Below, in pieces: positions 17,101-28,394 of a DNA stretch of 32,000 nucleotides. The position numbers and the translations under genes are program-made. The notes below the pieces were generated by a model. The model was not told the origin of the DNA. It ran no database searches and was given only the letters and a program-made list of their open reading frames with translations. The stretch is from positions 810,001-842,000 of the forward strand of contig NZ_CP010904.1 of assembly GCF_001017655.1 (NCBI RefSeq). The letters run 5' to 3'. Each line of letters begins with the position of its first letter. Position 1 is the stretch's first letter. This DNA comes from Kiritimatiella glycovorans (GTDB taxonomy: Bacteria > Verrucomicrobiota > Kiritimatiellia > Kiritimatiellales > Kiritimatiellaceae).

Positions 17101-17482
17101 AGAGGCGAGTTGCCCACAGCCATGCGACCGTCTCCGACGAGTTCAATGACCCATTCTCGACGGCCGCAGGCTATGGACAACTCGCCGGAGTTGTGGCAGA
17201 ACACTCGCAGGAAGCGGGAGCCCTGATGCTGACTTAAAGTTCGAAAAAACTGGCTCCGCTATCGGGACCACCGCTGTCTTAACACAACCCCAAAATACCG
17301 TCATTCGGCTAACTGCTTAATCTGAAAGGATATCTGTAACCGGACGCGTGTCGGACCCTGTCCGAAGAAAACAGAGAATACCGCCCCAAACAGAGAATGA
17401 ACGTGGTGAGAATGGAGAGAATCTGGTGGCTGGAGAGAGGTTCCGGAAAGATGTTAAAACGGCCGAAACCCTTTGAATACAA

Positions 17483-17531
17483 GGGGAAAAAGAAAACCCG
17501 CCTACCCAGAGAATCACTCTGGAGAGACGGG
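17483..17531 (-). terminator. Rho-independent terminator of ssrA
   Basis: The minus strand reads CCCGTCTCTCCAGAG-TGATT-CTCTGGGTAGGCGGG, a 15-position stem (about 11 Watson-Crick pairs, plus G-U wobbles and one mismatch), followed by TTTTCTTTTTCCCC. It starts 16 nt after the tmRNA CCA end. Confidence 0.7.
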
Positions 17532-17546
17532 TTGTCTTTTTCAAAA

Positions 17547-17903
17547 TGGTGGAGGCGGGGGGATTCGAACCCCCGTCCGTGCAAGCGTTACGTCTGCTTC
17601 TACGTGCGTAGTCCATCTTTAAGTGTCGCTCGCGGGCCGCCGATGAACGGGCAATCCCGGTCGCCAGTAACCGGAAAAAAACTTCGCTCCGCACCCCCGG
17701 TTACCCGGGATTGGAGCTAACCTGCTGTCGTCGCCGCTATCCCCTAGCAGGTGTCAGAGTAGCGACGCCACTGCGTTATTTACGCAGCGAGGGCCAATTC
17801 TTCGTTGGCACTTGTATGGTTACCGGATGATTTACGAGGCCAACCGGTGTCCTCGGCACGCCACAAACGCTCCGATTCTTACACGTCGAAGCCTGTCGCC
17901 CCC
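17547..17903 (-). ncRNA. ssrA: tmRNA (SsrA), 357 nt; tag peptide ANEELALAA
   Basis: The minus strand starts GGGGGCGACAGGCTTCGACG...GCGTGCCGAGG..GGTTGGCCTCGTAAA and ends ...GGACGGGGGTTCGAATCCCCCCGCCTCCACCA, the tRNA-like domain. The tag reading frame is GCC AAC GAA GAA TTG GCC CTC GCT GCG TAA at 17809-17780. Confidence 0.95.
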
Positions 17904-22475: not shown

Positions 22476-22616
22476 GCATTTCACTTTCTCAGGTCTCACA
22501 CTCATTCTAACTCTAACTCTGATTCTGATTCTGACTCTGACTCTTATTCTGACTCTGATTCTAACTCTGACTCAGACTCTGATTCTCACTCAGGTTTCAG
22601 GTCTCAGCCTTCACAC
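22476..22616. repeat. Hexamer-phased tandem repeat (TGAYTC-like) plus an aggtttcaggtctcag motif, inside the MFP-RND intergenic spacer
   Basis: About 15 consecutive 6-bp units (taactc taactc tgattc tgattc tgactc tgactc ttattc tgactc tgattc taactc tgactc agactc tgattc tcactc). The 3' part, cactcaggtttcaggtctcag, is the reverse complement of the core of the 27.3-kb array. Confidence 0.9.
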
Positions 22617-26506: not shown

Positions 26507-27241
26507 ATGTGGGACGACCTGACCTGGGTGCAGTGGGCGGCGGCCGCGGTAGCCGCTTTGCTGGTCGGTTTCGCCAAGACCGGCCTGCCCGGCGCGGGCA
26601 TCGTGATCGTCCCGCTCATGGCACTGGCCTTTCCGGCCCGGGAGTCGGTGGGACGGCTGCTCATCCTCCTGATTCTCGGCGACGTGTTCGCCGTGTCCTT
26701 CTACTGCCGCCACGCCCGGTTCCGTACGCTGTTGAAGCTGCTCCCCGGCGTGCTGGCCGGCATCGTGCTCGGCGCGTTTTCGCTCGATGCGCTGGACGAC
26801 CGCGGATTCCGCCTGCTGCTCGGCGCGCTCGTGCTGGTACTGCTGGCGATCGATATTCAGCGTCGTCTGTCGGGCATGAATCCGGGCCGTCACCCGGCGG
26901 CCGCGCCGCTCGTGGGCGCCGCCGCGGGGTGGGCGACGGCGGTGGGCAACGCCGCGGGATCGATCATGGCGATCTATTTCGTGATGATGGGGTTCCCCAA
27001 AAAAAAGTTCCTCGGGACCGCCGCGCTTTTTTTCGCCGTCGTGAACTGGATCAAGCTGCCGGTCTTTGCCGGGATCGGTATCGTGGATAAAGGGATCGTC
27101 TGGTCCGGTCTTTCCCTGCTCCCCGCCGTCGCCGCAGGCGCGCTGCTCGGCCGCGCCGTGCTCTACCGCATTCCGCAGAAGATGTTCGAGACCGTCGTCC
27201 TCATCCTCGCCGCCGCCGCGGCCCTGATGCTGCTGGTGTAG
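26507..27241 (+). CDS. TauE/SafE (TSUP) family anion exporter
   Basis: 244 aa, polytopic, with the glycine-rich repeated halves (..GFAKTGLPGAGIV.., ..GWATAVGNAAGSIM..) typical of the TSUP family. Confidence 0.75.
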   Translation: MWDDLTWVQWAAAAVAALLVGFAKTGLPGAGIVIVPLMALAFPARESVGRLLILLILGDVFAVSFYCRHARFRTLLKLLPGVLAGIVLGAFSLDALDDRGFRLLLGALVLVLLAIDIQRRLSGMNPGRHPAAAPLVGAAAGWATAVGNAAGSIMAIYFVMMGFPKKKFLGTAALFFAVVNWIKLPVFAGIGIVDKGIVWSGLSLLPAVAAGALLGRAVLYRIPQKMFETVVLILAAAAALMLLV

Positions 27242-27266
27242 GCGGCCGGGGAGGAAGAAGGAGCAG

Positions 27267-27590
27267 AGTAAGAGTGAGTGGGAAACCTGAGACCTGAAAC
27301 CTGAGTAAGAGTGAGTGGGAAACCTGAGACCTGAAACCTGAGTAAGAGGGAGTGGGAAATCTGAGTGAGAAACCTGAGACCTGAAACCTGAGTAAGAGGG
27401 AGTGGGAAATCTGAGTGAGAAACCTGAGACCTGAGACCTGAGTAAGAGGGAGTGGGAAATCTGAGTGAGAAACCTGAGACCTGAAACCTGAGTAAGAGGG
27501 AGTGGGAAATCTGAGTGGGAAACCTGAGACCTGAGACCTGAGTAAGAGAATCAGAGTGAGAGGGAGGGGGAGACCTGAGTAAGATAGAAT
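27267..27590 (+). repeat. Near-perfect tandem repeat: 2 x 37 bp, then 4 x 50 bp, then a degenerate unit
   Basis: Unit starts (agtaagag...) fall at 27267, 27304, 27341, 27391, 27441, 27491 and 27541. The 37-bp unit is agtaagagtgagtgggaaacctgagacctgaaacctg. The 50-bp unit is 13 bp longer, apparently by an internal partial duplication spanning gggaaatctgagt (units align best with about one further substitution). The sequence is purine-rich on the plus (transcribed) strand. Confidence 0.95.
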
Positions 27591-27779
27591 CGCTGGCGGC
27601 GGGCATGAGTGGATCCGGGGTTGTGAAGGGTGGGTCGCCGATTTTCGCGGCGGTTATTGAGTCGCGGCCTTCCTCCCGCTACGGTATAGACTTTGAACCG
27701 AACGGACTGTGACCGGTCTGACAGACGAGTATTCGCCCGGCAGCGCAAGTCCCGGAGCGGCAGCCCCCGAAAGGACGGG

Positions 27780-28394
27780 ATGATGAAAAAGGAGAAGCCT
27801 ACACCCGCGTACGTATGGTTCGACACCGAGTACACCACGCTTGAACTCGAAAACGCGCGGCTGCTGCAGGTCGCGGCGATGATCACCGACCGCGACCTCG
27901 AGCGGCTGCACCCCCCGGAGGAGGATTTCAACCGCTGTGTGCGGCTGCCGCGCAATGCCGGGCTGAGTTCCTGGGTGAAACGGAATCTGGCGGGGTTGAT
28001 CGAGCGCTGCCGCGGACCGGAGGCCGTCCCGGCGGATGAGATCGACGGGCTGCTCTGCGATTATATCGACCGCTGGCTGGGGCTTCCGAAGGACGAGATC
28101 GAACTGCGACCGGTGCTCGCCGGCAACAGTATCCACGCCGACTGGTTTCTGGCCCGCCGCTTCTGCCCGGCGTTTCTGACCCGGATGCACTACCGGCTGC
28201 TGGATGTTAGCGCGCTGAAGATTCAATGGAAAGACCGCGGCGAGGGAGAGGAACTGAACAAGAGCGATCCGCAGCAGGTGGCGCGCTACTTTCCGGAGGC
28301 GGACGTGGACCGCGCCGCCGAACACGACGCCTTGTATGACATCAAGGCCTCGGCCGCCGAGCTGGCCTACTATCGCGAGCGGTTCGGGATTTGA
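27780..28394 (+). CDS. orn: Oligoribonuclease
   Basis: WFDTEYTTL (DxE), LAGNSIHADWFL, HYRLLDVSALK and the C-terminal ELAYYRERF parallel E. coli Orn (WIDLEMTGL, CGNSIGQDRRFL, HYRYLDVSTLK, ELAYYREHF). The start MMKKEK at 27780 follows an AAAGGA RBS. Confidence 0.85.
   Translation: MMKKEKPTPAYVWFDTEYTTLELENARLLQVAAMITDRDLERLHPPEEDFNRCVRLPRNAGLSSWVKRNLAGLIERCRGPEAVPADEIDGLLCDYIDRWLGLPKDEIELRPVLAGNSIHADWFLARRFCPAFLTRMHYRLLDVSALKIQWKDRGEGEELNKSDPQQVARYFPEADVDRAAEHDALYDIKASAAELAYYRERFGI

Follow-up and report, generated by a model that had tools for sequence, protein, structure and literature searches.

Heptamer repeats next to stop codons

Arrays of tandem heptamers adjoining stop codons are widespread in bacteria and have been noted for decades, and they are still unexplained. 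STRR heptanucleotide repeats are found in heterocystous cyanobacteria, and long simple sequence repeats (LSSR) with units of 5–11 nt occur in prokaryotes. Like the family analyzed here, these repeats consist of tandem 7-nt units, are intergenic, occupy many loci per genome and bloom in particular lineages. To our knowledge, no composite higher-order structure has been described for them, and they are built from other heptads and reside in clades other than PVC.

Rehm et al. (2015) described the heptamers GGGAATC in Xanthomonas and GGGGA(C/T)T in Nostoc (PMC4692102). The Xanthomonas GGGAATC repeats are 89%–93% intergenic, lie on the coding strand at or overlapping a stop codon, 28 nt from the 5' ORF versus 160 nt from the next one, and form 70–75 convergent inverted pairs with no leading- or lagging-strand bias. 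Transcripts were found to start or stop at heptamer repeats more often than at controls, and the function was left open (PMC4692102). TAACTGA direct repeats were reported in marine Beggiatoaceae, cyanobacteria and Bacteroidetes, where a role in binding CsrA, S1 or Csp was proposed only (MacGregor 2015; PMC4679880).

The window analyzed here is a 32,000-nt stretch of the chromosome of Kiritimatiella glycovorans L21-Fru-AB (NZ_CP010904.1, positions 810,001 to 842,000), in which a tandem array follows a TauE/SafE-family gene. The array is a member of the known, still unexplained heptamer class and is distinguished by the 37/50-bp higher-order amplification of a solo purine arm. The repeat family to which it belongs falls into the heptamer simple-sequence-repeat class, sharing with the repeats of Rehm et al. 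the tandem 7-nt units, the intergenic placement after stop codons in the sense orientation, and the convergent inverted pairs. Unlike those heptamers, the CCTGAR-A heptad has no G-tracts, so that no G-quadruplex logic applies, and it carries TGA, which places stops in all frames. Moreover, the heptads are mixed with hexads in higher-order units of 31–89 bp that are themselves tandemly amplified, and solo purine arrays predominate over pairs, the TauE array having no partner. The TAACTGA repeats resemble the family in being a stop-containing intergenic heptamer with a patchy cross-phylum spread suggestive of horizontal transfer, but they lie mostly a few nucleotides upstream of start codons rather than just after stops.

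We found no description of such repeats in PVC bacteria in the literature, nor are they mentioned in the publication on the K. glycovorans genome (PMC5148204). The TauE locus provides a clean example from the closed genome of a cultured PVC bacterium (DSM 26986). Our analysis suggests that the array is probably a dispersed 37-nt module that was amplified locally and is tolerated as an inert transcribed spacer, the rules of its placement acting as a survival filter.

Structure of the array downstream of the TauE/SafE gene

The features relevant to the array are as follows (window positions).

22489–22607, minus strand: sister array (one heptad block and GAGTCA/GAATCA hexads) between HlyD-like and AcrB-like genes, in their sense
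26507–27241, plus strand: gene for a TauE/SafE-family membrane protein (Pfam PF01925, E 3.7e-28; GC3 0.87)
27239–27241, plus strand: TAG stop codon of the TauE gene
27163–27606, minus strand: 147-aa antisense ORF, not a gene (antisense stops per frame 0/1/0; no Pfam family above threshold)
27242–27266, plus strand: G/A-rich leader from the TauE stop to the first unit, read from the sequence itself
27267–27340, plus strand: two identical 37-bp units, each of GAGTAAGAG, GAGTGGGAA and ACCTGAR heptads
27341–27540, plus strand: four 50-bp units, each the 37-mer lengthened by 13 nt that are duplicated internally, arranged A-B-A-B'
27541–27590, plus strand: decayed terminal unit of the array
27591–27779, plus strand: non-repetitive spacer ahead of the exonuclease gene; neither an inverted partner arm nor a site resembling a promoter or terminator was seen
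27780–28394, plus strand: gene for an RNase T-family (DEDD) exonuclease, downstream of the array (Pfam PF00929)

The 324-bp array begins 24–25 nt 3' of the TauE stop and has its purine strand in the sense of that gene. The first-pass annotation had described two 37-bp and four 50-bp near-identical units, the longer ones arising by a 13-bp internal duplication, and each of these points was borne out. TRF detected at 27266–27548 a 37-bp period of 2.7 copies (96%) and a 50-bp period of 4.7 copies (97%, score 446). When the units were cut by hand, the two 37-mers (27267–27303 and 27304–27340) were identical, and the four 50-mers differed pairwise at 0–2 positions. When 13 nt, TCTGAGTGAGAAA, are taken out of the 50-mer, what is left matches the 37-mer at all but one position. 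The additional nucleotides are therefore an internal duplication of GAGTGRGAAAYCT, and the junction of this duplication, GGGAAATCTGAGTGAGAAACC, is absent from the rest of the genome. The first and third 50-mers are the same, while the second and fourth have a variant in common, which suggests that a two-unit block of 100 bp was duplicated. ACCTGAR heptads occur in runs of two or three in every unit (TRF period 7). The units are contiguous, without spacers, and identification of the array as a CRISPR was rejected. No inverted repeat was found inside the array, and neither an inverted partner arm nor a cargo ORF was found within 1.3 kb of it. Since the genome is a closed PacBio chromosome sequenced at 265x coverage (PMC5148204), a single contig of 2,949,723 bp with 63.3% G+C, the array is not a short-read artefact.

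The sense strand of the array is 71% purine, lacks ATG and contains 38 stop codons (14, 11 and 13 by frame), as opposed to a single stop over the three antisense frames. The 147-aa antisense ORF is thus merely a stop-free strand. It had no credible Pfam match and was not picked by the GC3 gene caller, in agreement with the earlier view that it does not encode a repeat protein, and it should be flagged as spurious in annotations.

Searches with blastn-short showed that the 37-nt module is present, 89%–94% identical, at about nine other loci of the genome, and a relative of the 50-nt unit at one further locus. Copies within the TauE array are 96%–100% identical. The higher identity within the array means that the expansion is recent, as the first-pass annotation had proposed. 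Each array of the family has its own period, from 31 to 89 bp, with an internal identity of 87%–100%. Judged from these sequence identities, the TauE array appears to be a dispersed module that later underwent recent local amplification. With regard to strain variants, an exact 26-mer from the right flank matched no metagenome contig.

The repeat family in the K. glycovorans genome

The building blocks of the family are ACCTGAR heptads and GAGTCA/GAATCA/GAGTAA hexads. A motif census revealed 79 clusters, 72 of them intergenic, which together occupy 7.2 kb; double heptads were found 190 times genome-wide, and the reversed control 0 times. The core 20-mer, CTGAGACCTGAAACCTGAGT, occurs 38 times in the genome. 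Its reverse complement, which had been placed at 22587–22606 of the window, is indeed present in the sister array, one base further on, at 22588–22607. On the minus strand, this array is separated by 10 nt from the preceding HlyD-like stop and by 39 nt from the AcrB-like start that follows, confirming that the efflux-operon copy belongs to the same family and has the same transcriptional sense. Arrays in the sense orientation within operons, such as the HlyD/AcrB one, evidently still allow the downstream gene to be expressed.

The first-pass annotation took a dispersed REP-like family as the null model. Of this, the dispersed family stood and proved closest to the truth, but the label REP-like does not apply, as the units are non-palindromic. 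The arrays do resemble REP/REPIN sequences in being short, dispersed and intergenic, often located after genes and sometimes arranged as inverted pairs; they differ in consisting of non-palindromic, non-folding, strand-asymmetric purine tracts. Matches to the Y1 transposase family PF01797 were found three times in the genome, none of them near an array in the census.

Gene contexts were taken from a home-made GC3-based caller (2000 genes, 81% genome coverage), and some context classes are wrong. With these calls, arrays start a median of 17.5 nt past the stop of a co-oriented gene and about 107 nt before the next gene. Most solo arrays, including the TauE array, lie between co-directional genes, and there 28 are in sense and 6 in antisense orientation (p=2e-4). 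The genome-wide check of orientation thus upheld the sense bias, and the copies, which occupy some 70 loci, are neither randomly oriented nor confined to two places. A leading- or lagging-strand cause of this orientation was rejected, as the purine strand is the leading strand in 42 of the 72 arrays versus 60% of genes, with no effect beyond the genes' own. Where arrays of opposite strands lie no more than 600 nt apart in this genome, the purine arm precedes the pyrimidine arm in all nine cases (9:0), a count that does not need gene calls. Solo purine arrays outnumber such pairs in K. glycovorans.

The association with stop codons extends to the sequence around them. The stop codon is overlapped or provided by the array at seven loci or more, so that the C-terminal residues and the stop are repeat-encoded in such genes, a point for their annotation as well. 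Stops inside or flush with an array were seen at genome positions 929140, 962566, 993927, 1127751, 1917022, 2547033 and 2788975. Genes linked to an array are enriched in purines over their final seven codons (0.66 vs 0.57, p=2e-4), and in 25 of 35 such genes a G comes directly after the stop, compared to a background of 31%. G-rich leaders like that at 27242–27266 follow the stop at most loci of the family. For TGA as the stop codon there was a trend only (27 of 35 vs 62%, p=0.08).

The two strands of the arrays differ strongly in composition. Over all arrays, the sense strand contains 10.3 stops, 0.19 ATG and 8.4 YC per 100 nt, with G at 0.33 and C at 0.14; ordinary intergenic DNA contains 2.9 stops, 1.25 ATG and 15.8 YC per 100 nt. 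On the antisense strand YC reaches 25.3 per 100 nt, with C at 0.33 and G at 0.14. Given this C-over-G excess and the presence of Rho in the genome, one could imagine the arrays as directional insulators, in which Rho would load strongly on the pyrimidine-rich complement, stopping antisense or incoming convergent transcription and letting sense transcription pass. Convergent contexts are somewhat enriched (15 vs 7 divergent, p=0.05, by the same gene calls), in line with this idea. However, no incoming transcription is expected at most solo arrays, the TauE array among them, where the flanking genes are co-directional, and we regard an insulator role as quite improbable.

GGA motifs and the proposed sponge or SD-mimic RNA

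The first-pass annotation counted about a dozen GGGA or AGGGAG motifs and raised the hypothesis that the array acts as a protein-sponge or Shine-Dalgarno (SD)-mimic small RNA similar to CsrB/RsmZ. The motif count was accurate: GGGA occurs 13 times and AGGGAG 5 times, and the array carries 13 GGA and 12 SD-like 4-mers. Like the CsrB/RsmZ RNAs, it therefore has many GGA in one RNA stretch, and the 16S rRNA has the canonical CCUCC tail that an SD mimic could address.

The other evidence pointed the opposite way. Searches of this 99.97%-complete closed genome, in which positive controls were matched, revealed neither CsrA (PF02599) nor Hfq (PF17209). The predicted folding energy of the array RNA was close to that of dinucleotide shuffles (MFE z -0.51), and the centroid structure was almost unpaired, without GGA-presenting hairpins. 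Rfam searches gave no match on the array, either at gathering thresholds over the whole window or at E<=1 over 27100–27800. A crude scan of 26900–27900, in a group whose promoters may differ, revealed no sigma-70-like or intrinsic-terminator-like site. Among the 72 family arrays, 34 are without GGA and 38 without an SD-like 4-mer; the sister array lacks both, and the CCTGAR heptad arms in other phyla carry no GGA either. The GGA and SD-like motifs are thus a local trait of some arrays and not a family-wide one. In addition, the family occupies about 70 loci, compared to 1–3 genes for CsrB/RsmZ, and no independent transcription signals were seen at the array in the crude scan. Taken together, the missing CsrA and Hfq, the lack of GGA in half of the arrays and the absence of structure, recognizable signals and Rfam matches make a sponge or SD mimic very unlikely indeed. 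G-quadruplex formation was also considered and is unlikely, since each 50-bp unit contains only two GGG runs and the heptads contain none.

Occurrence of the repeats in other genomes

The exact 20-mer was found in 87 stretches in a collection of 185,579 species. All named matches belong to PVC bacteria, namely Opitutaceae and relatives, Chthoniobacterales, Puniceicoccaceae, Lentisphaerota and Victivallales, and none of the named matches lies outside PVC; the 20-mer is present in Kiritimatiellia as well as Opitutae. Three IMG/VR viral contigs also hold the exact 20-mer, one of them twice. In the other genomes the 20-mer is part of a sharply bounded run of 4–5 heptads, about 32 nt long, with no flanks common between species. 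Inverted pairs are usual there, the purine arm starting 0–16 nt after a stop codon, and at 20-mer loci in Verrucomicrobiota and Lentisphaerota the order of the arms is purine then pyrimidine in 33 of 33 pairs (33:0). The sense bias of solo arrays in other phyla has the same direction and is not significant (14 vs 6, p=0.12); 29 arrays were classed as "genic?" by the crude caller.

At the level of the phylum, a triple heptad was found in 33 of the 401 sampled genomes and in 26 of 185 genera. It blooms in a few genomes, with 70 occurrences in K. glycovorans and 63 and 25 elsewhere, and most relatives of the same order have none. The exonuclease gene has orthologues in 29 of 30 same-order relatives (51%–61% identity), while neither TauE nor the M42 peptidase adjoined it at any of the 11 relative loci inspected, the order of genes having changed in the nearest relatives available. 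In the Opitutaceae MAG bin-0516 (CAITEC01...), a heptad block with conserved flanks, TTGCAGAAACCTGAGA...CTGAGTCGATCCTTCAAAC, is present at more than 30 loci and has the appearance of a discrete dispersed element organized around the heptads.

This distribution bears on whether the arrays are a functional cis-acting RNA signal of 3' untranslated or intercistronic regions. Such a signal could consist of periodic GAR triplets and CCUGAR heptads bound by a putative PVC-specific RNA-binding factor, or of a platform for ribosome standby or release, modulating the stability or translation of flanking genes. The heptad is common to PVC classes and absent elsewhere among the named matches, and its run length is sharply bounded at 4–5 units in other phyla; the strict sense orientation and placement directly after stops, and the transcript starts and stops above controls at the repeats of Rehm et al. 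(PMC4692102), agree with this. On the other hand, the repeats are patchy even within the phylum and absent from most same-order relatives, their period and unit composition vary between loci, and the arrays follow unrelated genes in tandem, convergent and divergent contexts at roughly background frequencies. With CsrA and Hfq not found, there is also no candidate partner. We consider a cis-acting signal unlikely.

Inverted pairs and the origin of the family

At genome positions 1,026,203–1,027,052, inverted arms of the same repeat family enclose an ORF, an arrangement not seen at the TauE array. The enclosed gene belongs to PF05635 (56 bits; "23S rRNA IVS protein", a four-helix bundle) and is bracketed exactly by the inverted arrays at 1,026,203 and 1,026,921. 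It is conceivable that the family derives from a mobile intergenic cassette made up of a purine arm, a cargo and a pyrimidine arm, solo arrays being arms that stayed behind when the cargo and the 3' arm were lost and that were then amplified. Polarity is the same in all 42 inverted pairs of this and other genomes, the 37-nt module is common to about 10 loci, the 20-mer is carried by three viral contigs and the occurrence across phyla is patchy, all of which would fit mobility. Several observations weaken the case, namely that the TauE locus has no partner arm or cargo ORF within 1.3 kb, that only two strong PF05635 genes face 72 arrays, and that no mobilizing enzyme is linked, the Y1 transposase and reverse transcriptase genes being not adjacent to arrays. 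The TauE array thus has a low chance of being the remnant or arm of such a cassette. As a proposal about origin, the cassette does not conflict with the inert-spacer explanation.

A further reading, in which the CCTGAR-A arrays would be a PVC-specific cis signal, either read by a putative clade-specific factor at mRNA 3' ends or serving as recombination or processing arms of a putative mobile cassette system that targets stop codons, seems improbable. If it were true, the amplified solo arrays would be functional modules, and the 42:0 polarity together with the sharing of the 20-mer across classes would be their signature.

Under the inert-spacer explanation, the TauE array is a non-coding, solo purine-strand member of a family of CCTGAR-A heptads and GAGTRA-type hexads located after stop codons in K. 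glycovorans and, as shorter arrays, in other PVC bacteria. The composite 37-nt module, found at about nine other loci, was probably amplified by slipped-strand or unequal recombination. The variant pattern suggests that two 37-mers came first, followed by the 13-nt internal duplication and then by expansion to four 50-mers, a step in which two adjacent units were probably copied as one block. The array most likely shares a transcript with the TauE gene and acts as an inert spacer. Its sense RNA has stops in three frames, no ATG and no stable predicted structure, is G-rich and C-poor, and can neither extend the upstream protein nor provide a spurious translation start. The few C residues, the lack of structure and the stops would also make the sense strand a poor Rho substrate, so that Rho loading is not expected. 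The opposite orientation, stop-free and rich in YC, a composition favoured by Rho, would seldom be tolerated unless preceded by a paired purine arm. The rules of orientation and placement may then reflect a survival filter on a fast-turnover repeat rather than a dedicated function. The anatomy of the array, the placement rules and the strand properties were observed directly; co-transcription, the Rho argument and neutrality we infer from the sequence.

Some findings do not sit easily with this explanation. The exact 20-mer heptad sequence is kept across Kiritimatiellia, Opitutae, Chthoniobacterales and Lentisphaerota, which points against pure neutrality, since a neutral slippage product is not expected to keep its sequence that far; it points to horizontal spread or a clade-specific constraint. 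Slippage also does not account for the presence of the 37-nt module at about 10 separate loci, and both findings would fit horizontal or cassette-borne spread as well as some constraint. The invariant purine-then-pyrimidine polarity (42:0) can be explained equally well by descent from one element type or by selection. The family in K. glycovorans follows three quantifiable rules, placement after stops, sense orientation and invariant arm polarity, and has undergone recent higher-order amplification, which makes this strain usable for deciding between an inert spacer and a signal.

Other features of the window and the genome

The window contains a tmRNA gene at 17547–17903 on the minus strand (Rfam RF00023, 172 bits). 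A 91-aa ORF predicted by the GC3 caller at 17309–17584 overlaps this gene and is probably spurious.

Two further families of tandem repeats were seen in the genome. The second, unrelated to the heptad arrays, is GC-rich and REP-like and consists of units of about 41 bp with a GGGACGGG...CCCGTCC hairpin, at genome positions 371556–372010, 475275–475528, 483011–483246 and 2813435–2813928. The third comprises compound arrays on the kilobase scale, built from TCGTGGCAATCGGGGGA and CGTTTCCACGAGGCGCGAAGCGCC units and reaching periods of 425 bp, at 708094–709087, 1031510–1032466, 2500279–2501777, 2734130–2735115 and 2737509–2740157.

The genome also encodes seven RVT_1 matches with near-equal scores (113.9–114.8 bits) in open frames of 432–447 aa, at positions 76925, 280643, 1264854, 1699601, 1747611, 2519495 and 2723099, along with two more distant reverse-transcriptase matches. 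The seven copies resemble an active retroelement present many times over, perhaps a group II intron, and no link between them and the arrays was seen. Two equal-scoring Y1-transposase (PF01797) genes are located at 2430288–2430620 and 2856464–2856796, the latter beside perfect 81–188-bp tandem repeats (2855730–2857107). With dnaA at position 1, the cumulative GC skew is lowest near 2.94 Mb and highest near 1.22 Mb, and the replichores are thus unequal, about 1.2 and 1.7 Mb long.
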